Positions 30,124 to 51,447 of a stretch of DNA of 64,000 nucleotides are shown in pieces. Source of the DNA: Alphaproteobacteria bacterium (GTDB lineage: Bacteria; Pseudomonadota; Alphaproteobacteria; CAAHEQ01; UBA3637). Each line of letters opens with the position of its first letter. The first letter of the stretch is position 1. The notes beneath the pieces were generated by a model. That model did no database searches. It had not been told where the DNA came from and saw only the letters and a list, made by a program, of their open reading frames with translations. The position numbers were made by a program, and so were the translations under genes. Location: the NCBI GenBank assembly GCA_017960645.1, contig JAGCYU010000017.1, positions 7,721 through 71,720 on the forward strand, given 5' to 3'.

Positions 30124-30168
30124 GAAAATCTTGCTTTCTGAACACAGTTGTGATAATATAACGAGGGG

Positions 30169-35444: not shown

Positions 35445-35454
35445 GGTTTCTCCT

Positions 35455-35877
35455 TTAATAGATGGCATAAAATAAATGGTTACCGATTTGTGCACAAGGA
35501 ACGGCACTATGTGCCCATTTAGGGTTGCAACATAGCGCATGATAATGTGTGGCCCCATGGGTGTTGTCTTTTAAACATCCAGCAATAGCACGCTTGGCAA
35601 TGCGGTAACAGATTTTATATACAGAATCTTGACTTAAATCTTGTTCCAGTAAAGGCGCATTGGCATCTTGTTTATTCCAACAAGAAAATTGAAAAGGTTT
35701 TTTGCATACTTCAATGATGGAATTTCCCCACCAATGTGATCCTTTTTGTATCGCAAATTTGACACGGTTTAAAATAACGTTGGCAACGGCTTCTATGCCG
35801 GCAACAGATTCACCTCGGGCTTCTCCATATAATGTTTTTGCCATGGTTTCAGCTTCATTTGATAAATTTTGCTTCAT
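35455..35877 (-). CDS. Cell-wall hydrolase (SleB/CwlJ, Hydrolase_2 family) endolysin
   Basis: LYGEARGESVAGIEAVANVILNRV and FSCWN motifs typical of SleB-type lytic enzymes. Follows the terminase gene. Confidence 0.7.
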   Translation of the reverse strand: MKQNLSNEAETMAKTLYGEARGESVAGIEAVANVILNRVKFAIQKGSHWWGNSIIEVCKKPFQFSCWNKQDANAPLLEQDLSQDSVYKICYRIAKRAIAGCLKDNTHGATHYHALCCNPKWAHSAVPCAQIGNHLFYAIY

Positions 35878-35894
35878 TTTATTCTCCCTTTAAA

Positions 35895-37334
35895 TTATCG
35901 CCACTTCGGGCGAGTTAAATTTTGAAATGGATTACGTTTTAATCGGATAGGTTCACACAACAAACAACCAGCAACAGCATCTAATACGTCATCATGACCC
36001 CGTGGTGCTTGCGGATTAAAATCTTGCATTTGCCCAATTAAATCTGTGTTTTTAACCGAGGTATGTACAAATAAGGCGCTGTTCATAAGTGGCGCTTCAA
36101 AGGCCGATAAAATCCGCTTGACTTTGTGTTCACGCGATATTTCTTCCAAAACAGCACAGGAAATGCCAGCTTTTTCCAACTCTTGTCGTAATAAGGCAGG
36201 CAAAAATTTTCCAATACCGTTACTTTCTAAGTGAATGGCTGGAATATAATTGTCGCGAATAAAACGTACGACTTGTTTGCATTGAAAACTTGCGGCTTCT
36301 GCATTAGGTGGAACCAACAATGTTTGAATGCGGTGCAAATAATAATGTCCCGAATCATCCGAAAAAACACAAGCTATGACGCTAGAATCCCCTTTTGCTG
36401 AACCGAAAGACGGATCCCACCAACAACTGACTGATACCATTTGTATGTTGCCGATTTTTAATGTGGCAGCATCATTTGCTTCATGGTATTCAATATCTTC
36501 ATGATAAAAGTTTAATCTAGCCGTATCCAGCCGCATTTCGGTTGGTAAAAATGGTTGCAACATCATTTGGCTGGCAAACTTGGATGGTGCAGTTGTTGCC
36601 TTTAATTCTTGAATTTTATCTGAACTAAAGCGCTCTGGCCAATTTGATTGCCCTTGTTTATTAATCAAAGGGATTTTCAAAGTTGGCCAGTTTTTTAAAA
36701 ACTCATCTGTATTGTAAATGGTGTCATTACTGTGGGGTGTGCCGATATACAATATCATGCCATTTGGTGTCAGAATATAATTCAGCTCATCCAGTTTGTG
36801 TTTTAATGTTAATCGTTTTGGATAAGTATCAGAAGTTTTTGGGACTTCCACATCATCACAAATAATCACATCGGCTCTGGAACCTGTAATGTTGCTGGAT
36901 AAACCGGCAGCTAATACAGACGGATCTCGCCCGTTTAGTGTACGATTGACAGTTAAACGATCCGAAGCCCATTCATTTGTATGAGATGGTTTTAATCCTA
37001 TACAAGCCGGATGTTTTTCCAAAATTCGTTTGATATGTTGTACCATTTTTTTTGCCAAGGCAAAATCTGCGGCCAAAATCAAAATCCTTGTATCCGGTTT
37101 AAAACATAACAACCATGCACAAAATAATCCTACTAAAGTAGATTTACCACTGCCTCGAAAAGCCATTAACAAAGCTTTTTTTTGAGGAATAAAAACATTT
37201 TGTAAAAATTGACAAATAGCTTTATGATGCTTAGGCACAGTTAAATGCAATGTATGCATCCAAATCCATACGAAATTAAGAAAATTCATCTGGGGTAACA
37301 TTGTCATTTTCGTTTTCTTTCTCGGCTTGCGCAA
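35895..37334 (-). CDS. Phage terminase large subunit
   Basis: Walker A MAFRGSGKSTLV, Walker B DVIICDDVE, and nuclease-domain start WWDPSFGSAKGDSSVIACVF. The true start may be a downstream Met (37289-37307). Confidence 0.8.
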   Translation of the reverse strand: MRKPRKKTKMTMLPQMNFLNFVWIWMHTLHLTVPKHHKAICQFLQNVFIPQKKALLMAFRGSGKSTLVGLFCAWLLCFKPDTRILILAADFALAKKMVQHIKRILEKHPACIGLKPSHTNEWASDRLTVNRTLNGRDPSVLAAGLSSNITGSRADVIICDDVEVPKTSDTYPKRLTLKHKLDELNYILTPNGMILYIGTPHSNDTIYNTDEFLKNWPTLKIPLINKQGQSNWPERFSSDKIQELKATTAPSKFASQMMLQPFLPTEMRLDTARLNFYHEDIEYHEANDAATLKIGNIQMVSVSCWWDPSFGSAKGDSSVIACVFSDDSGHYYLHRIQTLLVPPNAEAASFQCKQVVRFIRDNYIPAIHLESNGIGKFLPALLRQELEKAGISCAVLEEISREHKVKRILSAFEAPLMNSALFVHTSVKNTDLIGQMQDFNPQAPRGHDDVLDAVAGCLLCEPIRLKRNPFQNLTRPKWR

Positions 37335-37557
37335 TTAAATCTAACAGGCTTGTTTGAGCTTCGTTTTGGTTTGATTGTTTTGTTAGTTTGTTTAACAATA
37401 TGATATGCGCCAAAGCGGCTTTACAGGCATTATGATAGGCCGTAAATTCTTTGGTGTCGGATACAGGGGGCTGATCCGTAAAGGTTAAGTAATGTTGGAC
37501 TGTTTTGTTCAACACAGGGGTTAACATTTCCGATAAAGTTATGTTTTTATCGGGCAT
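37276..37557 (-). CDS. Phage-cluster hypothetical protein (small terminase candidate by position only)
   Basis: 93 aa ORF immediately upstream of, and overlapping, the large terminase gene. No motif recognised. Confidence 0.4.
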   Translation of the reverse strand: MPDKNITLSEMLTPVLNKTVQHYLTFTDQPPVSDTKEFTAYHNACKAALAHIILLNKLTKQSNQNEAQTSLLDLIAQAEKENENDNVTPDEFS

Positions 37558-37566
37558 GGTTCATCC

Positions 37567-38031
37567 TTATTCAATCATACTGCGTGACAGGTTGGATATG
37601 CTGTTTGTGACGGCCATTCCTTGGTCATTTGTTAACATTTTTAATCGCAATAAATTTTGAGTATTGATTCTTTCAATGCTGTTTTTTAAAGCTTCCAAAG
37701 AAATATTGGCTTGGCCTTGGACATATTTATCTTCCATATCATGTTCTTTTTGCATTGTATTTAATACCACTTGGCCTGAGCCTGATGATTGGCTGAGGTT
37801 GCTGGCACCCAGCTTGGCACGATAAGCAGATTGTTGTTGTGCCAATAAATTTCTGCTTTTACGTTGGTGTTCAGCCAAGGTATTTTCAATATTTTGCTGA
37901 TTTAATTTAGCCTGATAATTTTCTGCTTTGTTTGCCGCTTTTGTGGCTTTTTTTTGCATCCGCAAATTATCTAATGAAAAATAGGTGGATGCTAAGTTTG
38001 TAATAACTGATGCTGCAGCTGCTGCTTCCAT
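37567..38031 (-). CDS. Phage-cluster hypothetical coiled-coil protein
   Basis: 154 aa, rich in Q, N, A and K. Tightly packed between the tail gene and the terminase genes. Confidence 0.4.
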   Translation of the reverse strand: MEAAAAASVITNLASTYFSLDNLRMQKKATKAANKAENYQAKLNQQNIENTLAEHQRKSRNLLAQQQSAYRAKLGASNLSQSSGSGQVVLNTMQKEHDMEDKYVQGQANISLEALKNSIERINTQNLLRLKMLTNDQGMAVTNSISNLSRSMIE

Positions 38032-38033
38032 AA

Positions 38034-39968
38034 TTAACCTCCTAGTTTAATATCACTCGTTACCGATACTAATTTGAATGGTAAAGGCGTATCCCCTTTG
38101 ATTTCCCATAAAGGAGAAGTAGGGGTACGACTCCATCCTAAACAACGGACAACGACATCTTGTGTTTTTGCGCTATTGGCGCTGTTGAGTGTATAACTTG
38201 ATAAATTGGGTACCAATTCTTGATGTGCTCCTGAGCCTGTATCAATTTCCAAAGATTTTGTGTCAATGACGCGGAATACGGCACGGACAAGTCGGCTGTT
38301 TGCTACCGGAGCGCCTCCAGATCCCGAAACGCTTGATGCTACAGGCGGCAAAGGAACAACGATATGAGAAAAGGGCAATCCTATTTCGAATTGTTTTGCC
38401 GGATGAGCTACCTGGATGGTATTACTTTGAACGGTTTGTTTGTCCAAAATGATGTCATCTGCAACAATAGCTACTTTTTTATTATTCAGCACGCTCAGGT
38501 TATTTACAGTAGTTGTTGCCGTTTCTTTAGTTATAAGATAAGCGCTATCTGTGTGACAATTCTCGTCCAAATATTCCAAGTGATAGACGCTATCTCGCTT
38601 GACAATGAAATACGCCGTTTTACCCAATATACCAACTGCTAAAAATTTACCATCTGTTGTTTGTTCGGTCCAACTTTGTAAATTTTCTGAACGAAAACTG
38701 GTTAATGTTGCCATTTTCCCCGTGTTCATGACAATATAGGCTTGACGTTCATTTTTGTCATAAGCCATATCAATTGGATTTTGTATTAAATGGCTGGATA
38801 GCAAAGACAGATCGGTTGCTTGGTACATGCCTTCCAGATCAGAGAAAAGAAATTCACGGATTTCATGACCATTTTCTGCCGCAAAAATTGTTGCGCCATC
38901 AATACCAATTGGAGGAACAAAGCGCGTGTCACACGATCCTACTTGTGTTTGACGCTTTAGCTGTATCTCGCTGGGGGTCAAAGGATCCCCAGACACCATC
39001 CATTCTGCACTGGTGGTAAAAATTTGCAAGTGTCTGCCCGCAAATAAGGCACATATTTTGTTGGATTGGTCTGATAAAATATCAAACTCGATTGCTTCTG
39101 CATCATAGCCGGCCCCTGTTTCAAAATTTTTGATATCTCCAGATTGGCTAAACCAAAGTGTATTTGGTAAGCTTTTACTGCCACCGAAAACGAGTCTGGA
39201 TTGATAGGTGCATACGGTGGCTGGCCAACCGTATTCTGAACAAAAAGCAGGTTCGCCCCATGCTCTGGTTGCTTCCAAGACGGTATTTTCTCCTACATTA
39301 TCATCATTGATGAGTTTTTTTAAAACAGTCGCTTGCGCATGTGTGCTATCAGTCACAGCCGTAATTAAAACATAACCCTCTGCTAATTTAAATTGTTTGT
39401 TGACATGACTGTTTGTAAAAAGTGCCTCGCTGGCCGTTAAGGTGACATTGTTTAAACAACCTGAGCTTGAAATCGTTACACTATCGTCACAAAATCGATG
39501 ATAAGGCTGCAAAATACAACTGTCCTCAGTTAAGAAAGAAAAGTTATCCTTGGTCCATGTATTACCAGATTTATGAATCAAAATAGGTTGTGTATCTGGA
39601 TGGACAAAAATGACACCTTGGTTTTGTAAGGCTGCCCATTGCACAGTATTAACTTGTTCCAATGTCCACGGCATCGTGATAGTTGTGACAAAAGTATTGT
39701 CATGGTAAATATCCAGACGTTGGTTCATTAAAATCAAAAGATATTGATCCGTGCTAGACAAATCGTATGGAATCAATCGTCCGGACGAGGTCAAAGAAGC
39801 AATGTACCTTAACCCCGGACGACGATGAATTCCTCCGGTCGGTTCCACAAACACATTTTTTAATGAAAAAGCCCCGTTGTTATAAGCATTTAAATCAACG
39901 CGCCCCAATAAATCTGTGCTTAATTCTCCGCTGGTAAAATTGGTTTTGCTGGTGAAAATATTTGTCAT
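38034..39968 (-). CDS. Large phage tail/nozzle protein (tail tubular protein B-like by position)
   Basis: 644 aa, overlapping the upstream adaptor-like gene by 4 nt. Occupies the T7 gp12 position downstream of capsid and the gp11-like gene. Confidence 0.5.
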   Translation of the reverse strand: MTNIFTSKTNFTSGELSTDLLGRVDLNAYNNGAFSLKNVFVEPTGGIHRRPGLRYIASLTSSGRLIPYDLSSTDQYLLILMNQRLDIYHDNTFVTTITMPWTLEQVNTVQWAALQNQGVIFVHPDTQPILIHKSGNTWTKDNFSFLTEDSCILQPYHRFCDDSVTISSSGCLNNVTLTASEALFTNSHVNKQFKLAEGYVLITAVTDSTHAQATVLKKLINDDNVGENTVLEATRAWGEPAFCSEYGWPATVCTYQSRLVFGGSKSLPNTLWFSQSGDIKNFETGAGYDAEAIEFDILSDQSNKICALFAGRHLQIFTTSAEWMVSGDPLTPSEIQLKRQTQVGSCDTRFVPPIGIDGATIFAAENGHEIREFLFSDLEGMYQATDLSLLSSHLIQNPIDMAYDKNERQAYIVMNTGKMATLTSFRSENLQSWTEQTTDGKFLAVGILGKTAYFIVKRDSVYHLEYLDENCHTDSAYLITKETATTTVNNLSVLNNKKVAIVADDIILDKQTVQSNTIQVAHPAKQFEIGLPFSHIVVPLPPVASSVSGSGGAPVANSRLVRAVFRVIDTKSLEIDTGSGAHQELVPNLSSYTLNSANSAKTQDVVVRCLGWSRTPTSPLWEIKGDTPLPFKLVSVTSDIKLGG

Positions 39969-40534
39969 TGTCGTACCTCAATCAAAGAAAAATCTTGAAA
40001 ACAGCTGGGGACAGATTGTTGACTGTCCGCTAATTTGGCAGCTTTTATTTCTTCTTCAGCTAAATTTTTCATGTAGTCTGTGCGGGTTGTGCTTTCAGTT
40101 AAAGGTAAACAAAATTCTGCGGCCAATTTTGCAATCAACGCTGTGACAAAAAAGGAAGGAAAGTTTTCTTCCAACGGTCGGGAGATATACGATATCACAA
40201 CATGATCTGCATTCGTATAAAGTTTATCCTGTACAATTTTATAGTTTAGACCAGAAGATTTATAGCCGCTGCCTGCTGATAAAATACGAATCACATCATT
40301 TGGCAGTTGATATGCATATTGATAGTCTGCAGTAGGGTTAGCCGTTAAACGATTTAAAGTAGCTTGTTCTAAAGCAAAACGCCATGGATATTGCGCCAAT
40401 AATCCTTCTAAGACAGGCGCATATAATTGGGCGGCAATTTGTGCTTCTGCCGTCGTATCATTAAAAGATGAAATGCCTGAAGCGCCTAATTTGACTAAGG
40501 CGCGGGAACATAAACTGATGGCGGTATAATTCAT
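39965..40534 (-). CDS. Head-to-tail adaptor / tail tubular protein A-like
   Basis: 189 aa from the ATG at 40534 (AGGAGA RBS). N-terminal ISLCSRALVKLGASGISSFND pattern and gp11-like position. Confidence 0.45.
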   Translation of the reverse strand: MNYTAISLCSRALVKLGASGISSFNDTTAEAQIAAQLYAPVLEGLLAQYPWRFALEQATLNRLTANPTADYQYAYQLPNDVIRILSAGSGYKSSGLNYKIVQDKLYTNADHVVISYISRPLEENFPSFFVTALIAKLAAEFCLPLTESTTRTDYMKNLAEEEIKAAKLADSQQSVPSCFQDFSLIEVRQ

Positions 40535-40604
40535 TTTAATCTCCTTGTAATAAAACCCCTTCCTAACGAAAGGAAGGGGCATAGTATTATTTTATATGTA
40601 TGAT

Positions 40605-41468
40605 TTATGTTTCTGCTTCTTCTTCAGCTGGTGGTGTGTCCAAACAAACCATTTTGACAACACCTTTTGGATCAATCAAACATGCGCCTTGGCTCATCAT
40701 GTTATTAACATAGTGAGCAGCATAATCTCCATGCCATGTGATGTCTGTTGTAATATCTTGACCAGCGGCTAAACCAACGGCAGATTTATGATAGATAAAG
40801 CAGGTCGTTGTAGCGCTTGATCCAGAACCGGAAGTCGGCAAACCTGTGTGCATGATCCAGTTAATACCCATCCATTTGCGCGATTCTGAACCGGACAATA
40901 ATGGGTGTTCATTTCCAACATAGTTTGCATTTGAAAATTCCTCCATGCTTAATAATTGATTCCATTGTGCAGGTCCGACCAAGGCAAAACGTTCGCCATC
41001 ATCAGGAACTTCATTGGTATTCAATGTTTGAAATGCGCTTAAAATGCGTTCTTTTGTTAAGGCTTCAGAGGATGTCCCCGCCGTTTGGGAAGCAGAACTT
41101 AAGGCCGTAATAATCAATGCATCAGTTTTGCGACCCAAGGCATAGGCGCCTGCAGTTGCCAAAACTTGACGTTCATCATGACCGACTTTTAATTCATCCA
41201 TTTTGTCAACCCACTGTCCTGCATACCAATCGGACAAAGTGCATTCTACTGGCGCATGTGTGACGGCGGCAGGTGTCAATTGGGCATTGCGTGAAGATTT
41301 TTGGTTGGCAGTTTGAGCACCAATGACTTGGAACGTTGTGGATGTTCCTGTAATATTGTCTTTAAAACGAACGGTCTTTTTTAATTTTGATCCTTGTTGT
41401 TGATAAGCATTGTGTACCTCGGCTTGAAAATGCTTAATGAAAGAGGCATCAATTGCTGTACTTGTCAT
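40605..41468 (-). CDS. Phage major capsid protein
   Basis: 287 aa following the scaffold gene. N-terminal FIKHFQAEVHNAYQQQGSKLKKTVR and the overall pattern resemble P22-coat/BPP-1-type capsid proteins (recollection only). Confidence 0.65.
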   Translation of the reverse strand: MTSTAIDASFIKHFQAEVHNAYQQQGSKLKKTVRFKDNITGTSTTFQVIGAQTANQKSSRNAQLTPAAVTHAPVECTLSDWYAGQWVDKMDELKVGHDERQVLATAGAYALGRKTDALIITALSSASQTAGTSSEALTKERILSAFQTLNTNEVPDDGERFALVGPAQWNQLLSMEEFSNANYVGNEHPLLSGSESRKWMGINWIMHTGLPTSGSGSSATTTCFIYHKSAVGLAAGQDITTDITWHGDYAAHYVNNMMSQGACLIDPKGVVKMVCLDTPPAEEEAET

Positions 41469-41596
41469 ATTTTTCCTTTCAGTAATATTTTGTTGTTATT
41501 AAAATTTAAACCTTTGTTTGAGTTGTGAAATAAATTCGCTCGTGCAAAGGGTAGACGAGGGGTTTAGTATTGCTACTAAACTTATCCAGAAAAGGG

Positions 41597-42283
41597 TTAG
41601 TCATATAGGCGTTTGAATCCGTTTTCAACGCGTTTGATCAGTTCCGGATCTTGGTCACGCCAATATTTGGGGCTTTGCATGAGTTTTTTTAAGGTGGCTT
41701 CATCATCTTGAGTGGAAACCAAACCTTTGCCCTGTACCAGAGGAGAATCTATGCCCCGTGTCATCATTTGATACATTGTTAAAATGCCATCTTTTGATTG
41801 TGATAATGTTTCAAAGACACTAGGTGCTAAATTTTTTTCACCCCAAGCGGCTATTTGATGGGCAATCTGATTAAATTGTTCCGGTCCGCCAAACGTTTGT
41901 TCCAATGCTTCCAGCTCTTTGTCTTGCTGTATTTTTTGTCCGACTTGTTCCAGAACTGGCAAGACTTTTTCAAGGGCTAAATCATATACAAGCTGTGCTT
42001 GTTCATTTGTAAAGCCGTGTTCAAACAAAAGTTTGTTAATCTCGGGATCCGGTTGAATTAAAGGATTCTTCATTTCCAGTTGATAGTTTTCGGGTTTATC
42101 GGGCATAGTCCCTACAGATTTTGGCATAGAGGACATTTTCTTTTCCAATGCCAAATATGATTTCAATAGGTCGTTTGTTTTTAACTCTCCTTTGTCATCC
42201 AAAAATTTTTTTGGCGTTTCTGGGACTTGTGTTTCTTTAATATCTTCAGTTTCTTCAATTTTTTCATTTTCTTTATCTGTCAT
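41597..42283 (-). CDS. Phage scaffolding protein candidate
   Basis: 228 aa, acidic and helical, located between the portal and capsid genes with a 1-nt gap to portal. Confidence 0.5.
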   Translation of the reverse strand: MTDKENEKIEETEDIKETQVPETPKKFLDDKGELKTNDLLKSYLALEKKMSSMPKSVGTMPDKPENYQLEMKNPLIQPDPEINKLLFEHGFTNEQAQLVYDLALEKVLPVLEQVGQKIQQDKELEALEQTFGGPEQFNQIAHQIAAWGEKNLAPSVFETLSQSKDGILTMYQMMTRGIDSPLVQGKGLVSTQDDEATLKKLMQSPKYWRDQDPELIKRVENGFKRLYD

Positions 42284-42284
42284 G

Positions 42285-43784
42285 TCATGCTCCTTGGTTA
42301 GACAGGGTTAATGGAATCATAGGTGCTTCTGGGGCTTTTTTGAAAATGGATTCTGGAATGTTCAATTTTTCTCCAAACCATTTGACAAACGCACCTATAT
42401 CAATTTGAGACAGGGCGCTTTCTCCTAATTGAGCAATAGAATTCAGCCAAGTTAAACCGTTGTTTGCATCAATTTGAGCTTGTTTTTCTGCACGGGTGGA
42501 TTTGTACGAAATTTTTAGTAAGCGCCCATCAATAAAGACGTCTGGTATTTCTCCACGTTTGCGTAAAATATAAGTGGCCCGATCAATAAGCGGGGTTAAC
42601 AATTCTGATTGCAAACGACCATAGGTGGCGCCCAAAATCATAATCATTTCATCCGATCGTTCAATGACTTCGGTTGCTGTCATCTTCATCGCACCATCTG
42701 CTTGTCCAAGTTTATCGCCCAGTAAAGCGTGCTTAATGCGTTCTCTTAAATCTTTAAGGACCAATTGAGACACATCAAATTTTCCAGGGGATTCTAGTGC
42801 TGTCAGACCTTTTGACCCGACCGCTTTTGGAATGATAGCTCCGGGGACAAGTTGAATGTTGGCAGGATTTAAAACGCCATCATCCTCGGCAAGCCAAATG
42901 CCTGTCACGGCGATTGTGGCATTTTTAAGGATAAGTTCCACAACCTTGTTTGCCGTTTTAATATCCGGCAAAGCCTTCATGACAGGGGAACGGCCGTAAA
43001 CTTCCCCGGGAGCTTTAAGCCAACGGAAGGCAATAAGTGGTGAGGTACTATACGTTGTTTCTTTGAGTATAATAGGCTCAACATTATTGGAGAGATGTTG
43101 GCTGGTAGGGTTTAAAAAAGCAATGTAATCGTAGGCGCCTTGTGTGTTTGGACAGACAGATTCAATGACTTCTAACGCAATTTTTCCTTGTTGTGCATCG
43201 TTGACAATATCTGCCGGTAAAAGTTCATCACCAAAACGAGTCACAAATTCGTCGTAATCTAAACGGAGTGTGCGAAAAATGTGATCCAATTTTCCTGTGG
43301 CGCTTTCGCTTAATGCAATCTGGGACAGGGGAACCGCTGTAAAATGAAAAGCAGAGTTTGCACCAATGGGAGCTTCTTCAAACATTAAACAAGCTGTGCC
43401 GACTGTAATTAAATCTAAATAGCATTGATGGATTTCCATCGCTAAATTGCTGCGGTCAAAGTGTGTTTGTAATGTGTTAGATATAGTTTCAAGTGTTGGG
43501 GCAATTTTTTCTTTATCATCGTCTGTTAAATCTGTGCCTGTACTCAGTTTGAACCAACTCATCCATGGTGGCGTTAGTTCGGATAAAAGTAATGCAGCCA
43601 ATTGATCCACAGCGTCTGGGGCAGTTCCATCATAAAGCTGGTTTATTTTGGAACTAGCCGTACGAAAGACTGTTTCCCGTTGTGGAAAAGCAAAGGTATA
43701 ACAATCTTGCCAAGTGCTTTCCCATGCGCCACGTTCAGCGATGGCCTTTTTATAAGTTGTGTACAGATTGGATATATCTGTCAT
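42285..43784 (-). CDS. Phage portal (head-to-tail connector) protein
   Basis: 499 aa at the first position of the structural block. N-terminal ...ERGAWESTWQDCYTFAFPQRE resembles T7-gp8-type connector proteins. Confidence 0.65.
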   Translation of the reverse strand: MTDISNLYTTYKKAIAERGAWESTWQDCYTFAFPQRETVFRTASSKINQLYDGTAPDAVDQLAALLLSELTPPWMSWFKLSTGTDLTDDDKEKIAPTLETISNTLQTHFDRSNLAMEIHQCYLDLITVGTACLMFEEAPIGANSAFHFTAVPLSQIALSESATGKLDHIFRTLRLDYDEFVTRFGDELLPADIVNDAQQGKIALEVIESVCPNTQGAYDYIAFLNPTSQHLSNNVEPIILKETTYSTSPLIAFRWLKAPGEVYGRSPVMKALPDIKTANKVVELILKNATIAVTGIWLAEDDGVLNPANIQLVPGAIIPKAVGSKGLTALESPGKFDVSQLVLKDLRERIKHALLGDKLGQADGAMKMTATEVIERSDEMIMILGATYGRLQSELLTPLIDRATYILRKRGEIPDVFIDGRLLKISYKSTRAEKQAQIDANNGLTWLNSIAQLGESALSQIDIGAFVKWFGEKLNIPESIFKKAPEAPMIPLTLSNQGA

Positions 43785-43818
43785 TTTTATCTCCTTTCTT
43801 GTTACAATTAAAACTAGA

Positions 43819-43846
43819 AAACCGCCCTTGTCATTAAGAGCGGTTT
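43819..43846 (-). terminator. Hairpin plus T-rich tract between the two small upstream genes and the portal gene
   Basis: Minus strand reads AAACCGC-TCTTAATGACAAGG-GCGGTTT followed by TCTAGTTTT. Confidence 0.35.
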
Positions 43847-43902
43847 ATAACTTAAGATATACTTCTAGCGTTTAACTGTGACATACTATAACACATTTTT
43901 TA

Positions 43903-44307
43903 TCAAATGTCAAGGATTTTTTTCCTTTTTTTTAATAAAAAGCCAAAAAGTTGATATGGAGTCCATATTAAAGGTGCTTGAATTCCTAAAAAACGTTTGA
44001 CGGTTTCAACGCATGTATAGGGACGTAATGAAAATTTAACTTTTGATGGAACTTGTGGTTTTGTTTTAATAATTTTATATCCTTTTTCTTGAAAAATTTC
44101 TTCTATACGATTCGTTTGAACAATAATAAAATCTGTAAAATGCATAACGGGATCTATAATATGCCAATTTGAACCGTTACCTAAAATTAATAAGCAATGA
44201 TAAAAACCTTTTTTTAAGAATTTTGTCCACCAATGCGTCGCGTTTCCGCCAAAAGCGACATAGGCAATATTTGGGCGATATCCATAAGAAATATTTGATG
44301 TAATCAT
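43903..44307 (-). CDS. Phage-cluster hypothetical protein
   Basis: 134 aa with conserved-looking His and Cys (FYHCLLIL, PYTCVETVKRFLG). A permuted papain-like fold is only a guess. Confidence 0.4.
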   Translation of the reverse strand: MITSNISYGYRPNIAYVAFGGNATHWWTKFLKKGFYHCLLILGNGSNWHIIDPVMHFTDFIIVQTNRIEEIFQEKGYKIIKTKPQVPSKVKFSLRPYTCVETVKRFLGIQAPLIWTPYQLFGFLLKKRKKILDI

Positions 44308-44329
44308 TTGATTCTCCTATATTATTTAA

Positions 44330-44683
44330 TTATGCAACGATTCCTTTTCGACGCAGTAAAGATTCTAAAAAGCGTAGTGCTTCCTGCCATAAAGAACAAA
44401 TACTTAAACTGTCACCAAAGTGTGGGTGAGGGGGCACTTGTTGTGAGCCATATTTGGATAAAACCTTAATATGTTTTGGCAATAACAATCCTGCACGTAC
44501 TAATTTTTTAATCGCCAAAAAAATGTCTGACGATTCGCAAGGTCGAATAATGTGAGGTTCAGAATTGTGTGCCCGATTATTTCCGAGTTGTTGGCATAGG
44601 CAATACCAAAACCATGCCTCTTCAGCCGAGGTAAAAGGTGTTGTTTCCGTGTTGTTTGTTGTGAATAGGTATTTATTCCTCAT
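44330..44683 (-). CDS. Phage-cluster hypothetical protein; first gene of the leftward operon
   Basis: 117 aa from the ATG at 44683 (GGAGACA RBS). Trp-rich SAEEAWFWYCLCQQ motif. Function unknown. Confidence 0.4.
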   Translation of the reverse strand: MRNKYLFTTNNTETTPFTSAEEAWFWYCLCQQLGNNRAHNSEPHIIRPCESSDIFLAIKKLVRAGLLLPKHIKVLSKYGSQQVPPHPHFGDSLSICSLWQEALRFLESLLRRKGIVA

Positions 44684-44774
44684 TTTTGTCTCCTTTTTAA
44701 TTAAAAACGCGAACAAAATAGGAACTAACACAAAAAAATTTGATTGTCAATATAAAAATAAGAAAAAAATCCTA

Positions 44775-44803
44775 TTGACATCCATATAAAAATATGGTAT
44801 ATT
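44775..44803 (+). promoter_or_regulatory. Sigma70-type promoter for the CI-like repressor gene
   Basis: TTGACA (44775-44780), a 17-nt spacer, then TATATT (44798-44803), about 70 nt upstream of the ATG at 44872. The -35 element lies in one arm of the inverted repeat TGTCAATA/TATTGACA. Confidence 0.45.
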
Positions 44804-44871
44804 GCAAATGCAACTAAAAAGTGATTTGTTTCTTTTTTTGTTGATCAAATTATTTGTAGAAAGGAGAAAAT

Positions 44872-45507
44872 ATGCAGTTATCATATCAAGAAATTTGGAG
44901 AGGGTTAGAAAATTTGGCTGCAGCAAAAGGAATGTCTTTGTCGGGGATGGCTGCAAAGGCTGGTTTGGATCCAACCAGTTTTAATAAATCTAAACGGATA
45001 GGGGCAGACGGTCGCAAACGGTGGCCGTCCACAGAAAGCATGAATAAAGTTTTTCATGCGATGAATGTCACAGTTTTTGAATTTATGGAATTGGCCGGTG
45101 TTCCTTGCCCGCAAACAAAAAGAACAATCCCTTTATTGGGGCTAGTTAAAGCTGGCCGGGAAGGATATTTTGACACGGATGGTAATCCTATTTTAAGTGA
45201 TGATTGGGATGGGATTGAATTTCCGATTTCAGAGGCAAAGAATGTTTACGCTTTGGAAGTTTCCGGTAATAGTATGTTGCCTGTGTATCGCGAAGGGGAT
45301 AAATTGGTGGTTTCTCCAGAGGCAGAAGTTCGGAAAAATGATCGTGTTGTTGTTAAATTACGCTCGGGTGAAGTTATGGTCAAAGAATTGGCTCATAAAT
45401 CGGCTAAACAGATAGAGCTTAAATCTTTAAACGCATCTTATGATCCGATTATTGTTGCGCCGGATGATGTTTGTTGGATGGCGCGTGTGTTGTGGGTTAG
45501 CCAATAG
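44872..45507 (+). CDS. CI/LexA-like repressor (HTH plus S24 self-cleaving peptidase domain)
   Basis: C-terminal S24 motifs: ALEVSGNSMLP (Ser) and VVVKLRSGEVMVKEL (Lys). Divergent from the phage structural operon. Confidence 0.75.
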   Translation: MQLSYQEIWRGLENLAAAKGMSLSGMAAKAGLDPTSFNKSKRIGADGRKRWPSTESMNKVFHAMNVTVFEFMELAGVPCPQTKRTIPLLGLVKAGREGYFDTDGNPILSDDWDGIEFPISEAKNVYALEVSGNSMLPVYREGDKLVVSPEAEVRKNDRVVVKLRSGEVMVKELAHKSAKQIELKSLNASYDPIIVAPDDVCWMARVLWVSQ

Positions 45508-46159: not shown

Positions 46160-46438
46160 ATGTTAGTTTGTAAAAATGTAATTGTAAATGGTCGTAGAAC
46201 CAGTATGCGGTTGGACCGCGAAACGTGGCAATCGTTAGCAGATATTTGTGCACGGGAAAAATTAACAATTCACGAGCTGTGTTCAAAAATTGATTCTGCC
46301 AAAGGAAAATCAGGCTTGTCATCTGCAACGCGCTTGTTTGTTTTGACATATTTTCGATGCGTTTTGAATAAATATGAGCGAACGAATGAGGTGTTTTCCA
46401 TGGATTTCAATCCAAATTTTGTTTTGCAGCATGTTTGA
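46160..46438 (+). CDS. Ribbon-helix-helix domain protein (RHH_4-like)
   Basis: VNGRRTSMRLDRETWQSLADICAREKLTIHELCSKID...LSSATRLFVLTYF matches the alphaproteobacterial RHH_4 pattern. Confidence 0.65.
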   Translation: MLVCKNVIVNGRRTSMRLDRETWQSLADICAREKLTIHELCSKIDSAKGKSGLSSATRLFVLTYFRCVLNKYERTNEVFSMDFNPNFVLQHV

Positions 46439-46756
46439 AAGACTTGCTTATCAAAAAAAGCAAAAACATTGTAATATGCTTTTGCTTTTTTTATGTCCAA
46501 AATAAAAAACAGAACAGTAAAAAGAAGGAGGAATTCCGTGCTTGTTTGCAAGGTTGAGGAGTATTACGAACAAGTCCTTTTACTGTTCCAGGACGTATAT
46601 TAGCATTTTTAAAAAGATTTGTCAAGTATTTTTATAAATCTGTAAAATTGTTTGAATGCGTTTTATAAAAACATTGAAATATAGTCTATTATTTTTTACT
46701 GGAATTCTATTTTCTTTTTTAGTATAATAAAAGCATAGCTTTTTTATGGATCTGGA

Positions 46757-47920
46757 ATGAAAAAGAATTGGAGACGTCATTTATTGGTAGGTATTATCGT
46801 AGCCCTGATGTTTTTCGGGTGGTTTTTACGCGGTTTTTTGTGGATGAATTGGCGTTTTAGGTTATTTTCCGCGCACTCTTGGGGATATGTTTTACATGAA
46901 TTTAAATCTGGTTGGATGTTGGATGCATTAAGCGATTGGATTTTTTTGTTTACAATATGTTCTGCAGGTCCGTGTTTTTTATACTTATGGTATCTATGTG
47001 CTAAAGTCAGATGGCGGGCTTTAGTCAAGAAATTGTTGAAGAAGATAATATATATTATCTGGATTCCTATTTTGTGGTTGCAGGGCAAGAAAGCCAAAAA
47101 AACAACTAAAAAAGAGGTCGTTCAAAATAATACAGTCGTTAATGTTGTGGCAACTACAACAGCTAAGCCGGCTTCTAACCGCCCTCGTGCTATGACAGTA
47201 CAAAATAAGGGAGGGGTGACAACACCACAATATACGCCTAAATCGACTTTCAAAATGCCTCAAACAGCAATGGGAGGGGCGTCTGGATATGGCAGAGGTA
47301 TGTCAGATGCATTTGATATGCCGACTATGCCTGATATGGATAATGAATCCTATGCAGCGGATATATCGCAGATTCCTTTGGAAGATATCCATTTGCCCGA
47401 ACGCAAAGCAGTTATTGAAGATTTGGATGCCATTTGGGTTGAACGTAACTATTCTGTGATAAAAAATGTTTCGCTAGGAAAAGAGCAGATGGATTATGTG
47501 GCTGTTAATAAAGACACTATTTTTGTCGGTTTGTTGGATAAAGAACAATTTGATTGGTTAGCCGACGAAGAATCCTATAATAACGAGGAGCCTTTGTGGT
47601 TTTCCGAAGCTTCCCACCGTGTATCACCAATCTTTATATTGAACAGGGCTGTGCAAGTATTAAAAGAACGGTTGGGCGTTTTGTGTAAAGACTTTACAAT
47701 AAAACCGTTGTTGATTGAGCAAAAGGGAAATATTATCAATGCGCCCGATATGATGAAAAGTTGGTTGGAGATGGGTGTTATTGTTTGTCGGACGGATATT
47801 GGTGGGCCGGATGATTTATCTTTATTTGGTGATTTTTTGAAAGCAGGGGAACCTGTTGATACTGAAGTGTTTGAAAATGTGAAGTCAGTGGTATTAGGTG
47901 AGGAGAATAATAATGGCTGA
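46757..47920 (+). CDS. Membrane protein with a low-complexity linker and a cytoplasmic NERD-like domain; first gene of the coupling-protein operon
   Basis: About 3 N-terminal TM helices and a T/P/Q/M/G-rich linker. The C-terminal region (MDYVAVNKDTIFVGLLDKE...HRVSPIFILNRAVQVLKERL) resembles NERD by eye. Its stop overlaps the ATG of the next gene. Confidence 0.5.
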   Translation: MKKNWRRHLLVGIIVALMFFGWFLRGFLWMNWRFRLFSAHSWGYVLHEFKSGWMLDALSDWIFLFTICSAGPCFLYLWYLCAKVRWRALVKKLLKKIIYIIWIPILWLQGKKAKKTTKKEVVQNNTVVNVVATTTAKPASNRPRAMTVQNKGGVTTPQYTPKSTFKMPQTAMGGASGYGRGMSDAFDMPTMPDMDNESYAADISQIPLEDIHLPERKAVIEDLDAIWVERNYSVIKNVSLGKEQMDYVAVNKDTIFVGLLDKEQFDWLADEESYNNEEPLWFSEASHRVSPIFILNRAVQVLKERLGVLCKDFTIKPLLIEQKGNIINAPDMMKSWLEMGVIVCRTDIGGPDDLSLFGDFLKAGEPVDTEVFENVKSVVLGEENNNG

Positions 47921-50279
47921 TGCGTATGAAGAGAAAAAGAAATATGTCAAATGGGTCATTGGAACATTATTGATTGCCCTGATCCTTTTTTACTTTTTGT
48001 TATTACTGGCATTGCCATTAGAATTATGGTTTGCTAAAGGGTTAAGTATTGATACCTTAAATGCCGCAATAGATTTTTGGAAAAAATGTGTTGTTAATGT
48101 TGCCGCGTTAAGCAGAGCCTATGCACGTTGGTGGGGCAGGTTAAGTGATGCCCAAAATGCGACCTTTGCAACGTATATTCCTTTGATGCCATTTGTTGTT
48201 TTAATTATGACAATTTTGTTTGGGTTGTTTAAAAATCCGTATAAAAACCAAATTAACGTTTTTGGAGAAGGCCGAATGGCAACTTGGGCCGATATCAAAA
48301 AGATGGGTTTGTTTGATGGAAAATACGTTGTATTGGGGCGTTTCAAAGGACGTTTTATGAAAATGAATGAAACGTTATCGGCCTTAGTGGTCGCGCCGCC
48401 CGGTACCGGTAAAACAGCGGGAGTTGTGGTTCCAACAATTTTTGAAACTCCGGATTGCAGTTTGATTGTGAATGATCCCAAGCCCGAGTTATGTGATATG
48501 ACCTCTGGGTATCGTGCAACACAAGGCCCTGTATTTATTATTAACTGGGGAAAAGAGGATGATCCAGAAAAAGGTATTTATTATCCAAGCTGGAATCCGT
48601 TGTCGCCTCAATGTCTGCCACCTTTGGGACCTGCGCGTGATATGTATATTGATTCTATGTTGCCGATTTTGATTGAAGAGCCAAAGGGAGGTGCAGATCC
48701 TCACTGGTCCAGAACAGGACGGAACGCTATGTCAGGTTTTTTGCATTTTATTTCATCCAAATGTGAACGCGCCCGAGCCAATGATTATTTTGTTAATAAA
48801 CTTCAAGAGGGAAGCTTTGATGCTGAGGATGCCGAAATTTTAAAAACATATTATATGGACATGCAAGATGTGAGTGCCAGAGTTGCTTTAGATGCATTAA
48901 ATTCGGGCAATTTAACTTTAGGTAATTATGCCCCTGTCGGCACATGGGATGGTATTCCGCAAAATTGGTATGGGTGCGAACCATGTATTGCTATGATTTT
49001 GGAATGGTGGAATATGTTGGCAACCCAAGCCGCCGCGGAAATTAAACGGCGTGCAGATGAAGGCGATCAAATGGCTATGATGTCAGATCCAATCAAAAGC
49101 ATTTTGGAAACAGCCACAGCTGAATGTACGCGTTTTGGGTATTCGCACCGTGCAGAGTTGGAATTGCGGCAATTGGCAGCCACACCGGATAAAGAACGAG
49201 GATCTATTTTATCTACGGCATTTAATGGTATTGGTATCTTTAAAAACGCGGCAGTTGTTATGCGAACACGTTTTAGTGATTTTACGTTTAGAGATTTGCG
49301 CGGGATGGTTGATCCTGTGTCCGGTCAAATGAAGCCAGTGACGGTGTATCTTTCGGTGGATCAGGTTGATGCCCGCGCTTTAAATGTTATTACAGGTATT
49401 TTTGTCGAATTGATGAGCGCTTACTTGATTGCCAATAAACCGAATCACATAGGGGCTGATGGCCAGCAAGCGGGGCCTTATCCAGTTATGTTTGTTTTGG
49501 ATGAATTTCCTCAAATGCCTAAATTGGCGGCTGTTAAAGACGGCCCCGCAGTTGGGCGTGGACAAAAGGTGTCTTATTTGTTGATTGGGCAGGATTTAGG
49601 ACAGATTTCTGGTCAGTATGGTAAAGATGATTTGGAAACAATCATTACAACCACAGCAGCCAAGGTTATTTTGGCTCAAAACAACGAACAAACGGCCGAA
49701 CGTTTTGTTAAAATGGTTGGCACAAAAACCATTGAAATTGCCTCTCGTTCAAAACAAGAAGGTTTAAATGCCCCAAGCGGCAGCATGTTCACGGAAAATG
49801 TCAGTCGGTCTTTGCAACAATCTAATGTGTTGACTGTGGCAGATTTAACGAGTTTGCCTAAATTAAAGCAATATGTTTTAATGCAAGGATGGTTAAGTCG
49901 TCCAATTTTGGCGGATTCACCCTATTGGTTTATGAATAATAAGATGAAGAAGAAGGGGGCAATTCCTCCTGCTCCAAATGTGCCGAATTGGATTGTGGCG
50001 GCACGTGAATTCCAACCCGAAGTGAATCAAAATGAACAAAATCAAATGCCAACAGAAGGACCAGAAGGTGCATCAGCCGAAGCTTTAATGAATGCTGTAA
50101 ATCCATCAGACGAATTCATTGCGCCTATGACAGATCAGATGAATCAAATAGGATCTGAAGACATGCCTGAATCAGAATTTGGATCGCCCGTAAACGAAGC
50201 GCCAATGGCGGCCGAGCAAACATCAGAATGGTTAAATCCTTTCCCAGAGGATGAAAAGCCGGATCAGCCTAAACCTTAA
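47913..50279 (+). CDS. Type IV coupling protein (VirD4/TraG/DotL family ATPase)
   Basis: Two N-terminal TM helices, Walker A LVVAPPGTGKTAGVVVPT, SLIVNDPKPEL, Walker B VMFVLDEFPQMP, and a long acidic/Pro-rich C-terminal tail. AGGTGAGGAG RBS. Confidence 0.85.
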   Translation: MADAYEEKKKYVKWVIGTLLIALILFYFLLLLALPLELWFAKGLSIDTLNAAIDFWKKCVVNVAALSRAYARWWGRLSDAQNATFATYIPLMPFVVLIMTILFGLFKNPYKNQINVFGEGRMATWADIKKMGLFDGKYVVLGRFKGRFMKMNETLSALVVAPPGTGKTAGVVVPTIFETPDCSLIVNDPKPELCDMTSGYRATQGPVFIINWGKEDDPEKGIYYPSWNPLSPQCLPPLGPARDMYIDSMLPILIEEPKGGADPHWSRTGRNAMSGFLHFISSKCERARANDYFVNKLQEGSFDAEDAEILKTYYMDMQDVSARVALDALNSGNLTLGNYAPVGTWDGIPQNWYGCEPCIAMILEWWNMLATQAAAEIKRRADEGDQMAMMSDPIKSILETATAECTRFGYSHRAELELRQLAATPDKERGSILSTAFNGIGIFKNAAVVMRTRFSDFTFRDLRGMVDPVSGQMKPVTVYLSVDQVDARALNVITGIFVELMSAYLIANKPNHIGADGQQAGPYPVMFVLDEFPQMPKLAAVKDGPAVGRGQKVSYLLIGQDLGQISGQYGKDDLETIITTTAAKVILAQNNEQTAERFVKMVGTKTIEIASRSKQEGLNAPSGSMFTENVSRSLQQSNVLTVADLTSLPKLKQYVLMQGWLSRPILADSPYWFMNNKMKKKGAIPPAPNVPNWIVAAREFQPEVNQNEQNQMPTEGPEGASAEALMNAVNPSDEFIAPMTDQMNQIGSEDMPESEFGSPVNEAPMAAEQTSEWLNPFPEDEKPDQPKP

Positions 50280-50296
50280 AAAGGAGATTATCATTA

Positions 50297-50977
50297 ATGG
50301 TGACAAAACAAACTTCCTTGGATATGGTTGAATTAAGCGGGGAGGATGTTTATCCTGATTGGGAAAATTTACTTAAAAATAACACTGAAAATAAAGATGG
50401 AAAAAACACAGCTAAATCTGAGCTGGATATTTCTCTGGATATGTTATTGGATGAAAAAAAAGATATCAATTATTGGCAGGATTTATTTAATCAGATGAAT
50501 TTTCCGGGCATGGATTTAATGGCCGTGAACAAAGATAATAATTATGTGCTAGATCCGTTGGAAGAGCATAAAATTTTTCAAGAAAAGATTGTTCAATTTT
50601 TAAAGCTGTTGGCCACAGAAAATGTGAATGACTTGCGTACAGCTGGTATCTCGGAAAGCAGCATTTTTGCAATGGAAAAGGGGTTGGCCCCCGTGAATTG
50701 GACGGTTCATTTGAAGTATCCTTTGGCCTATACCGGACGTTTGGATTTTGATAATATGGTTTTAATTCAAATACAGCCCTTTCATGAAGATATTCACCAA
50801 TTTATTAACAAACAAATTTTATCCAAAGCAGGTGTTGCTCGTCCCGAAGAATTATATATTCCGGTTCCTTCCGGACGCGTTTATATTCCAATGTCCGGTT
50901 CGTTTGGTGGTGCAGGCGGAGGAAAGGCTGCAGCACAGATTTCCTCAAACAGCGGTAATGCGAATGGAGGGCGATGA
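50297..50977 (+). CDS. Protein with a colicin-DNase-like HNH (beta-beta-alpha-Me) motif and a Gly-rich C-terminal tail
   Basis: VHLKYPLAYTGRLDFDNMVLIQIQPFHEDIH versus colicin E9 [30 protein letters not shown]. Spacings are H-15-N and H-4-H, with a shared DxDN and HxDIH. AAGGAG RBS. Confidence 0.55.
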   Translation: MVTKQTSLDMVELSGEDVYPDWENLLKNNTENKDGKNTAKSELDISLDMLLDEKKDINYWQDLFNQMNFPGMDLMAVNKDNNYVLDPLEEHKIFQEKIVQFLKLLATENVNDLRTAGISESSIFAMEKGLAPVNWTVHLKYPLAYTGRLDFDNMVLIQIQPFHEDIHQFINKQILSKAGVARPEELYIPVPSGRVYIPMSGSFGGAGGGKAAAQISSNSGNANGGR

Positions 50978-51447
50978 TGTATTTATTGCGTCATTTATTA
51001 GATACAATGACCCAAGATTATGCTTTGACCTTTCGTCCGTTGAATTTAGCAGAAGTCAAACGCTTGTCTATTGCTTTGAAAAAAAATAATCTGTGTGTCA
51101 TTCCCTCAGATTATGCCAATTTTTTGTGTTGGTCAGACGGTTTGGTGTGGCGTAATTTAGAATTATTTTCCGTGTATTCTTATGAGCGTCCGGATACAGT
51201 TTATCCTCATCCTACTTTATTGGAAATCCAAAAAAAACATCTTTTAGAAGATGCATTTCCTCATAAAATTATCTTGGGGCGAGAGCTTGAATCAATTATT
51301 TGTTATGATGAACAAAAAAGACTCTATGAAATCCTGGAACGTTTTTCGTATCAACCTGTTATTCAGTTTGCTAGGTTTGTGGATTTATTGTATTTTTATG
51401 TTGGCAAGGAAAGGTCTTCAACTGTTCCAACGGAAACAGCTTCGTAA
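50974..51447 (+). CDS. SUKH (SMI1/KNR4)-like protein, immunity-protein candidate
   Basis: LAEVKRLSIALKKNNLCVIPSDYANFLCWSDGLVWRNLELFSV fits the SMI1/KNR4 N-terminal pattern. ATGA overlap with the upstream HNH gene. Confidence 0.5.
   Translation: MMYLLRHLLDTMTQDYALTFRPLNLAEVKRLSIALKKNNLCVIPSDYANFLCWSDGLVWRNLELFSVYSYERPDTVYPHPTLLEIQKKHLLEDAFPHKIILGRELESIICYDEQKRLYEILERFSYQPVIQFARFVDLLYFYVGKERSSTVPTETAS

Follow-up and report, generated by a model that had tools for sequence, protein, structure and literature searches.

HNH nuclease toxins with SUKH immunity proteins and VirD4 coupling proteins of the type IV secretion system (T4SS) are each well known already. In Bartonella, a T4SS reportedly secretes the toxin/antitoxin pair VbhT/VbhA, which is encoded beside the gene of a type IV coupling protein (T4CP). 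The X-Tfe of Xanthomonas and Stenotrophomonas, interbacterial effectors delivered by a T4SS, which carry an XVIPCD and include the nuclease TfdA, likewise represent toxin-type proteins encoded with a neutraliser beside a VirD4-type gene (PMC11253643). In polymorphic toxins with LXG, PT-HINT or MuF_C domains, the HNH domain reads VHHKLP...GGTN...N...H, and the toxin gene is directly followed by a SUKH/YrhA gene (e.g., WP_109962769.1 then WP_109962768.1 on the Bacillus subtilis plasmid NZ_CP064819). In the DNase of colicin E9 (ColE9), H103 activates the attacking water as the general base, while the metal is always bound by H102 and H127, with H131 serving as the third ligand of Zn (bioRxiv 10.1101/2020.04.29.068437; PMC2816704). 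Here, we describe a cassette found in a stretch of 64,000 nucleotides (nt) of an Alphaproteobacteria bacterium (assembly GCA_017960645.1, contig JAGCYU010000017.1, positions 7,721–71,720 of the forward strand), the whole of which is called the window hereafter. The cassette encodes, in this order, a membrane protein with a NERD-like domain, a VirD4/TraG-type T4CP, a 226-amino acid (aa) HNH-derived protein and a 157-aa SUKH protein (Table 1). As judged from the comparisons given below, the latter two most likely descend from a pair of an HNH polymorphic toxin and its SUKH immunity protein, and the toxin domain lacks the general-base histidine.

The open reading frame (ORF) of the 226-aa protein is preceded by a Shine-Dalgarno sequence, AAGGAG, about 10 nt 5′ of its ATG. 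A first-pass annotation, made from the letters of the DNA alone, had placed an HNH motif at residues 135–167 (nt 50699–50797) of this protein, and both positions were confirmed: the motif is the core of a predicted HNH-type ββα-metal domain. In an AlphaFold2 model based on an alignment of 23 sequences (38–79% identity), residues 135–139 and 154–158 form strands and residues 159–174 a helix, all with a predicted local distance difference test (pLDDT) score above 90, which is the ββα arrangement of His-Me finger nucleases. Scores are 81–96 in each 10-residue block of residues 61–200, lower for 51–60, and about 30 in the tail of residues 201–226. N134, H138, L139, K140, P142, Y145, G147, P161, H163 and H167 are invariant in the same alignment, and N153 is nearly so (at least 90%). 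The composition noted at first also holds, with residues 1–130 being acidic (25 Asp and Glu vs. 13 Lys and Arg, net −12) and the last 26 residues containing 9 Gly and ending in GGR. An acidic N-terminal region of about 130 aa does not exist as one unit, though, since only residues 1–55 or so (net charge −6) are variable and disordered and residues 56–130 are part of the conserved toxin-type domain. In orthologues, the N-terminal region is 15 to 115 residues long and mostly acidic. The HNH-like genes of three loci (L104, L106, and L108) encode proteins of 340–353 aa, in which a long low-complexity extension, Pro/Gln-rich or acidic and reaching up to about 200 residues, precedes the conserved domain at the N-terminus. 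Variation is therefore tolerated at the N-terminus but not in the core or the tail.

In a collection of 5.8 billion proteins, the 226-aa protein has 92 homologues, all unnamed and without Pfam domains, and the HNH-like homologues that are named at NCBI are called “hypothetical protein” and come from metagenome-assembled genomes of Alphaproteobacteria. An exhaustive search of 1.84 billion cluster representatives with the family profile (E ≤ 1e-3) matched 584 representatives, and three motif classes were assigned among the 150 of them that were listed. Class 1 (57 representatives) is characterized by the motif QVHHKLPLDDGGTNxFxNLVLIKNEPYHKxIT, and in many members the domain is located at the C-terminus of a longer protein. 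Class 2 (14 representatives) consists mostly of short proteins with the HH pair and H-x3-H, and class 3 (36 representatives), to which the window protein belongs, reads VH[LIMV]K.P...H-x3-H. Among ten sampled relatives, one each has a MuF_C, Portal_Mu, or PT-HINT domain, typical architectures of polymorphic toxins, and six show a sub-threshold Pfam HNH match exactly at the motif site. An hhalign comparison of the window family with the HH-containing classes 1 and 2 gave a probability of 99.9 and an E value of 6e-33 over 135 columns, taking in not only the ββα core but also the helical region ahead of it, so that the same domain of about 135 residues is found in the HNH toxins with SUKH/YrhA partners. 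The class 1/2 profile in turn matches HNH nucleases in PDB, namely Cas8f-HNH (5.8e-6), a group II intron maturase (3e-4), the pyocin AP41 DNase (0.006), and ColE7 (about 0.05). Furthermore, BLASTP aligned the protein with an LXG polymorphic toxin of Bacillus subtilis (37% identity, E = 2e-14), and a tblastn search of plasmids with the window protein found genes annotated as “T7SS effector LXG polymorphic toxin” (T7SS, type VII secretion system), “HNH endonuclease,” and “pre-toxin TG domain-containing protein.” At the profile level, the domain is homologous to the C-terminal HNH toxin domains of LXG/T7SS, PT-HINT, and MuF polymorphic toxins, and the HNH-type call of the first-pass annotation is right. 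The link of the window protein itself to established HNH nucleases is indirect but strong on these alignments; direct searches of PDB with phmmer and with the family profile gave noise, plus a weak match to Cas8f-HNH (E = 1.1). Unlike in the toxins, no trafficking domain (LXG, PT-HINT, or MuF) is recognisable in the 226-aa protein, which has only the short acidic disordered region at its N-terminus and the basic tail.

It might be argued, from the lack of any direct Pfam, NCBIfam, or PDB sequence match for the window protein, that the motif arose by chance or belongs to a decaying remnant without function. We give this next to no credence, since it is already refuted by the conservation (the 92 homologues, the 584 representatives, and the invariant motif residues), by the predicted fold of high confidence, and by the ORFs being intact in every locus. 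A class 2 protein, P0137 (8001–8561 of locus L084), has an intact HH pair and H-x3-H; it is the sole class 2 protein whose surroundings were examined, and it stands alone in a def-fmt-truA/rpoN-lptB neighbourhood with no T4CP and no obvious SUKH neighbour.

The partner gene overlaps the stop codon of the HNH-like gene by ATGA, and the SUKH identity that the first-pass annotation had proposed for its product is borne out. The 157-aa ORF contains IPSDYANFLCWSDG and matches the YrhA family of NCBIfam with E = 9e-11, which is below the curated cut-off. This ORF alone has no Pfam match, and among 31 of its orthologues, 23 match SMI1_KNR4, 14 SUKH_6, and 8 SUKH_5, each weakly. Every class 1 toxin gene that was looked up is directly followed by a SUKH gene, as is the HNH-like gene in the window: that of a 570-aa protein (L091), that of a PT-HINT protein (L092), and that of the B. 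subtilis LXG toxin (L174), where the following gene bears the annotation “YrhA family protein.” The SUKH family of the window aligns in hhalign with the SUKH proteins of these three loci with E values of 2e-13, 8e-9, and 2e-10, respectively. Because class 1 toxins precede homologous SUKH genes, the toxin domain and the immunity protein probably entered the locus as a pair. In colicins and pyocins, by comparison, the partner is an Im-type four-helix protein and not a SUKH protein.

The correspondence of the motif to the colicin-type enzymes decides which histidine is missing. None of the alignments has a gap across the motif, and in each of them the first His of the HH pair faces H138 and the second faces L139. 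How these residues relate to those of colicin-type enzymes is settled by the alignment of the HH-type profile with pyocin AP41 (IHHVVPLESGGALYNIDNLVIVTPKRHSEIH). H138 is then the equivalent of H102 of ColE9, a metal ligand; L139 takes the place of the general base H103; N153 corresponds to the structural Asn, N118; H163 to the metal ligand H127; and H167 to the third Zn ligand, H131. The spacings H138–H163 (25) and H138–H167 (29) are equal to those of H102–H127 and H102–H131. The first-pass annotation had aligned the motif with ColE9 by eye, and its distances are arithmetically correct, but its register is one residue off at the HH pair. It had matched H138 with H103 and concluded that the first His is replaced by Val and that metal ligation may differ; by the homology-based register, the reverse holds, with the metal ligands kept and the general base missing. 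The core architecture H-x3-P-x3-GG ... N ... H-x3-H is common to the window family and the DNases of colicins E9/E7 and pyocins AP41/S2, while in the window family the stretch from GG to Asn is shorter by one residue and that from Asn to His longer by one, the N-terminal subdomain differs, and the window protein has no direct profile match to the colicin-type families, so it is not counted as one of their members.

The absence of the general base is a character of the whole family. The complete motif is present in 173 of the 190 distinct T4CP-linked family sequences, and position 139 in these is Leu in 152, Ile in 13, Val in 7, Met in 1, and His in none, while H167 is present in all 173. Variants of the T4CP-linked family missed by the motif pattern still read HLQIP or HLKIP. 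Furthermore, N149 (“GGTN”), which is invariant in classes 1 and 2, is variable in class 3, so that both the base His and this Asn of the toxins are lost from the window family, whereas no variation is seen at N153, H163, and H167 across the three classes, or in the class concerned. By this register, the metal site (H138, H163, and H167) is conserved and the catalytic base is absent.

His-Me fingers without the catalytic His have been described in three groups: PacI, in which a Tyr in the omega loop substitutes for it, and the Smad MH1 domain and the nuclease-like domain of ENPP, both of which are inactive (PMC5714182). A rescue of catalysis of the PacI type was considered unlikely, for the sole conserved aromatic position of the omega loop in class 3 (145) is Tyr in 58% and Phe in 42%. 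Because Leu occupies the general-base site, N149 is lost and no substitute Tyr is conserved, canonical HNH catalysis has most likely been lost, and the 226-aa protein is most likely no conventional DNase. In Smad MH1 and in the ENPP1-3 nuclease-like domain (groups 16 and 21), the fold and binding functions were likewise retained when the catalytic His was lost (PMC5714182), although they belong to unrelated eukaryotic lineages, and the window family differs from them in keeping the invariant metal-ligand His and an immunity-type partner. Charge was also considered as a test of lost DNA binding: the median isoelectric point is 8.8 for HH-type domains vs. 7.1 for the His-less class, and that of the window core is 5.1, a fitting trend that is too weak to rely on.

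The cassette is conserved across species. In all of the 80 loci collected first, the order NERD-membrane protein, T4CP, HNH-like protein, and SUKH protein is found wherever the contig allows, with the genes separated by −8 to +3 nt in most loci. Identity to the window proteins in these cassette loci is 59–74% for the T4CP (55–83% over the T4CP orthologues), 36–54% for the HNH-like protein, 25–44% for the SUKH protein, and 28–50% for the membrane protein. Nearly all of the 71 species representatives are labelled as uncultured Alphaproteobacteria and two as Lactobacillales, and where the record title states a source, it is the gut of human, ruminant, or rabbit. Many loci have the same housekeeping neighbours as the cassette in the window, a gene with a DnaJ domain and an RHH_4 gene on one side and AnmK, acyltransferase, DUF218, and FtsX/FtsE genes on the other, and others lie at different housekeeping positions, beside SecDF/PBP1A or YacG/RNase G/Maf. 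Even in five sampled distant representatives of class 3, the T4CP gene is directly upstream in all five. Unlike the genes of polymorphic toxins, the HNH-like gene is linked in an operon to that of a T4CP and is single-copy and syntenic in each locus examined, with no polymorphism, cassette arrays, or mobile-element context, and the distribution of the cassette looks vertical.

A second metagenome scan was seeded with the T4CP instead of the HNH-like protein. In the loci thus obtained, the NERD-membrane gene is located upstream in 63 of the 63 with enough sequence, and only about half of the loci have the HNH-like and SUKH genes. In a sister lineage (L132–L134, L141–L169, and L171), the T4CP is about 55% identical and the membrane-NERD gene encodes 450–510 aa, and no HNH-like or SUKH ORF was found within 10 kb of the T4CP gene even by a hidden Markov model search; the T4CP gene there is followed by genes for an ArsR-like regulator and an ispA-like protein and other housekeeping genes. 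Because this lineage keeps only the NERD and T4CP genes, the ATPase and the NERD protein work without the pair, and the HNH-like/SUKH pair would be a client or an add-on rather than an obligatory structural subunit. Our literature search found no description of a cassette of T4CP, NERD, HNH, and SUKH genes, nor of a T4SS in RF32-type gut Alphaproteobacteria.

The membrane protein encoded by the first gene matches the Pfam NERD family weakly (E = 0.007), and 11 of 30 orthologues match it, the best with 7.8e-6. In its AlphaFold2 model, pLDDT is above 90 in both folded parts, and the top Foldseek matches are all restriction-endonuclease-like folds (AF1548 with a probability of 0.92, R2 endonuclease, XisH, Nt.BspD6I, and Hjc), each with a non-significant E value above 0.03. 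D246, D261, and E271 are conserved in the NERD-like domain, and no Lys is invariant. A DotM/DotL-like (type IVB) coupling complex was considered for the order of a 380-aa membrane protein followed by a 790-aa T4CP and was rejected, as PDB, searched with the family profile, gave no similarity to DotM and the C-terminal domain is NERD-like. The T4CP, to which a database protein of 788 aa is 100% identical, has further Pfam matches to TraG-D_C (7e-22) and TrwB_AAD_bind (3e-16), and Walker A (GTGKT) and Walker B (VLDEF) motifs can be read in its translation. All of its NCBIfam VirD4/TraG matches are far below the cut-offs, so it is no equivalog of a named VirD4/TraG protein. Translation probably begins with the ATG at 47913, which overlaps the stop codon of the first gene, while the mechanical ORF call uses the GTG at 47898. 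The best promoter-like sequence upstream (Table 1) agrees with only 10 of the 12 consensus positions, and such sites are not more frequent in the region than expected from shuffled sequences. The RHH_4 gene is a frequent neighbour outside the invariant cassette and is absent from some loci, e.g., L001. A complete FtsK with 4TM, alpha, motor, and gamma domains is encoded at 9788–12049 on the minus strand; the VirD4-like ATPase is thus no replacement for the chromosome-segregation translocase.

The C-terminal tail is the part of the HNH-like protein that might connect it to the ATPase. In most orthologues, the tail reads ...TGSGGKNKQDRSVxAGFSxxAFxKIALKSMPGR, and the last 30 residues of 70 orthologues have a median net charge of +4, ending in Arg in 62 and in Gly-Arg in 58. 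An unstructured, positively charged C-terminus is a known type of signal of VirB/D4 substrates. Because a VirD4-type protein is encoded directly upstream and the tail is basic and Arg-ending, the T4SS-type C-terminal signal suggested by the first-pass annotation is plausible, and so is recognition of the tail by the adjacent ATPase. The T4CP of the window and its subclade, with 788 aa vs. about 727 aa in most orthologues, carries an extra, strongly acidic C-terminal extension (C-terminus of the T4CP at 50000–50279 of the window), and the net charge over its last 100 aa is −17. In the same subclade, the tail of the HNH-like protein is Gly-rich and weakly basic in place of the usual basic tail, and these two changes may represent co-variation between the two proteins.

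The explanation that we favour, giving it a little better than an even chance, is that the HNH/SUKH pair is nuclease-disabled and has become a client of the adjacent coupling ATPase, either as a translocated substrate or as an adaptor that binds DNA or a partner. A toxin/immunity pair of the HNH/SUKH type would have been captured downstream of a chromosomal NERD and T4CP module and then fixed. The toxin would have lost its general base and kept the fold, the three-histidine metal site, the structural Asn, and the partner. The present HNH-like protein would dock on the ATPase through the disordered basic tail and would be translocated, or would serve as an adaptor like the nuclease-dead His-Me fingers that keep DNA binding (PMC5714182). 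As a chaperone or neutraliser, the SUKH protein may remain bound to the face that once held the active site until hand-over. VirE1 holding VirE2 is comparable to such a role.

Or the protein may be an active HNH DNase effector, delivered by a T4SS into neighbouring bacteria with its tail recognised by VirD4 and with the SUKH protein serving as the immunity protein of the producer. The strongest point of this alternative is that the cognate SUKH gene is always retained and translationally coupled. It would also fit the homology to bona fide HNH domains of polymorphic toxins, the T4CP gene directly upstream, the disordered basic tail, the invariant metal-binding histidines, the accessory status of the pair relative to the T4CP core, as expected of cargo, and the precedent reported for Bartonella VbhT/VbhA. 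As in X-Tfe (PMC11253643), the C-terminal region is a plausible recognition signal. We nevertheless regard an active effector as unlikely, above all from the universal loss of the catalytic His and from the syntenic, vertical-looking distribution of a non-polymorphic gene. The general-base His is found in none of the 173 sequences, and the varied hydrophobic residues in its place leave no new catalytic residue at position 139; N149 is lost and no substitute Tyr is conserved (PMC5714182). The gene is not polymorphic, with a single copy per locus, housekeeping neighbours, and a vertical-looking distribution. Furthermore, unlike X-Tfe and VbhT, the window protein has neither an XVIPCD nor a BID domain, no virB operon is nearby, and the catalytic residue is lost. 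No VirB/Trb-type genes were found in the 64-kb window, which contains a prophage-like block besides FtsK, ATP synthase, Lpx, and GroEL genes, or within 8–10 kb in the flanks of the related loci inspected. The closest plasmid T4CPs are 33–37% identical to that of the window; in the one neighbourhood inspected, on a plasmid of Erythrobacter aureus, the T4CP gene is the last of a canonical virB4-B8-B9-B10-B11-virD4 operon.

An intracellular conflict system, for anti-plasmid or anti-phage defence or for addiction, was also considered, in which invading DNA would be the target of the ATPase and of both nuclease-like proteins inside the producer and the SUKH protein would restrain the HNH-like protein until triggered. 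A combination of an ATPase, a NERD protein, an HNH-like protein, and a small inhibitor resembles many defence systems, and the prophage-like block adjoins the cassette in the window. This possibility seems to us still more doubtful than that of a secreted DNase, as PADLOC gave no match except a non-significant one to mad8 for the T4CP, the HNH-like protein has no catalytic base, and the phage block is absent from all of the related loci. Defence systems are typically patchy and island-borne. The cassette, on the other hand, occupies conserved housekeeping positions with a vertical-looking distribution in more than 70 species, with the ATPase 55–83% identical.

Several observations weigh against our own preference, a disabled toxin that has become a client of the ATPase. 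The SUKH partner is strictly retained and translationally coupled, just as would be expected if the protein were still toxic. Direct Pfam and NCBIfam searches of the 226-aa protein gave no HNH match, and no colicin-type Pfam family was matched at E values up to 1. Foldseek searches of PDB and BFVD with the AlphaFold2 model returned lists headed by HNH nucleases, none with E below 0.1, and were not used alone; of the two comparisons that the first-pass annotation had proposed, the one by profiles thus links the protein to HNH through its relatives, and the one by structure gave HNH matches that are not significant. Divergent HNH sites can stay active (Tox-REHH preprint), and H138 could in principle take over the role of the base. 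The tail of the window protein itself is weakly basic (+2), being the shorter Gly-rich version found in its subclade, and the lack of VirB/Trb-type genes in the window and in the inspected flanks counts here as well. Tox-REHH was rejected as a match on its description, according to which no similarity to HNH families can be detected in it, unlike in the 226-aa domain.

Table 1. Positions of the cassette, its parts, and other features in the window
Feature	Position (nt)	Strand	Remarks
Gene 1, 387-aa membrane protein	46757–47920	+	Helices 3–110, disordered linker 117–200, NERD / PD-(D/E)xK-like C-terminal domain about 220–380
Gene 2, VirD4/TraG-type T4CP	47913–50279	+	788 aa from ATG; Pfam T4SS-DNA_transf 3e-52
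Gene 3, 226-aa HNH-derived protein without general-base histidine	50297–50977	+	Third gene of the cassette
Gene 3, acidic disordered N-terminal region, residues 1–55	50297–50461	+	Variable; pLDDT <50 for 1–17 and 28–51
Gene 3, conserved toxin-type domain, residues 56–200	50462–50896	+	Helical N-terminal part, then predicted ββα-metal core
Gene 3, motif, residues 135–167	50699–50797	+	WTVHLKYPLAYTGRLDFDNMVLIQIQPFHEDIH; exact nt mapping of the translation
Gene 3, disordered Gly-rich C-terminal tail, residues 201–226	50897–50974	+	Ends in GGR; candidate T4CP recognition signal
Gene 4, 157-aa SUKH (SMI1/KNR4, YrhA-type) protein	50974–51447	+	ATGA overlap with gene 3 stop
Best sigma-70-like promoter match	46619–46648	+	TTGTCA-18-TAAAAT; about 110 nt 5′ of gene 1; possible operon promoter
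RHH_4 ribbon-helix-helix gene	46160–46438	+	Pfam RHH_4 3e-18
Portal	42285–43784	−	PF12236 1e-123
T7-type scaffold	41597–42283	−	
Major head protein	40605–41468	−	
Tail tubular A	39965–40582	−	
Tail tubular B/nozzle	38034–39968	−	
Large terminase	35895–37334	−	
Endolysin	35455–35877	−	
Divergent S24-peptidase (CI/LexA-like) repressor	44872–45507	+	

Two other features of the window are mentioned here. A compact T7-like (podovirus) block covers 35133–45507, with its genes on the minus strand except that at 44872–45507 on the plus strand. The best phage matches of its portal protein are a human-faecal phage fragment (55%) and Pelagibacter podophages (31–34%). No polymerase, integrase, core, or fibre genes were recognised in the block, and no tRNA lies beside it. 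A link of the cassette to this adjacent block was rejected, since none of the proteins of the block is found in 172 related loci (2.2 Mb), and because of this absence the block is taken as a genome-specific insertion, perhaps a small prophage, a remnant, or an element like a gene transfer agent. In the region 29605–32004, a 611-aa ORF (30169–32004) contains the C-terminal part of an OSCP/delta-subunit domain (profile positions 101–168) and a complete ATP synthase alpha subunit, and a 172-aa ORF just upstream of it has no Pfam match. The 611-aa ORF could be a delta-alpha fusion or could result from a frameshift or an assembly error in atpH.

What is new here is a whole clade of toxin domains without the catalytic histidine, in which the metal site and the immunity partner are kept under strong selection. 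It is also new that this clade, in every sampled member, goes together with a coupling ATPase and a membrane NERD protein, with no T4SS operon visible around them, and that the operon is located among the housekeeping genes of a large, uncultured, gut-associated lineage of Alphaproteobacteria, with its members annotated as “hypothetical protein.” A bolder idea, which we put forward as unlikely to hold, is that uncultured gut Alphaproteobacteria possess, in the membrane-NERD and VirD4-like proteins, a chromosomally fixed machine that handles DNA independently of a T4SS. Part of the lineage would have added to this machine a nuclease-dead HNH toxin, now a DNA-binding pilot or adaptor, together with the immunity protein as its chaperone. 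Such a machine would be similar to a relaxosome assembled from disarmed conflict proteins, and it would be the first case in which a coupling ATPase has a domesticated polymorphic-toxin/immunity pair as its subunit or client. If the HNH-like protein is a client of the T4CP, the family would provide a simple and conserved model for substrate recognition by coupling proteins, and if the ATPase works without a T4SS, a new role would be added to this ATPase family. In addition, the family provides a natural example for the fate of a toxin/immunity pair after the toxin has been disarmed.

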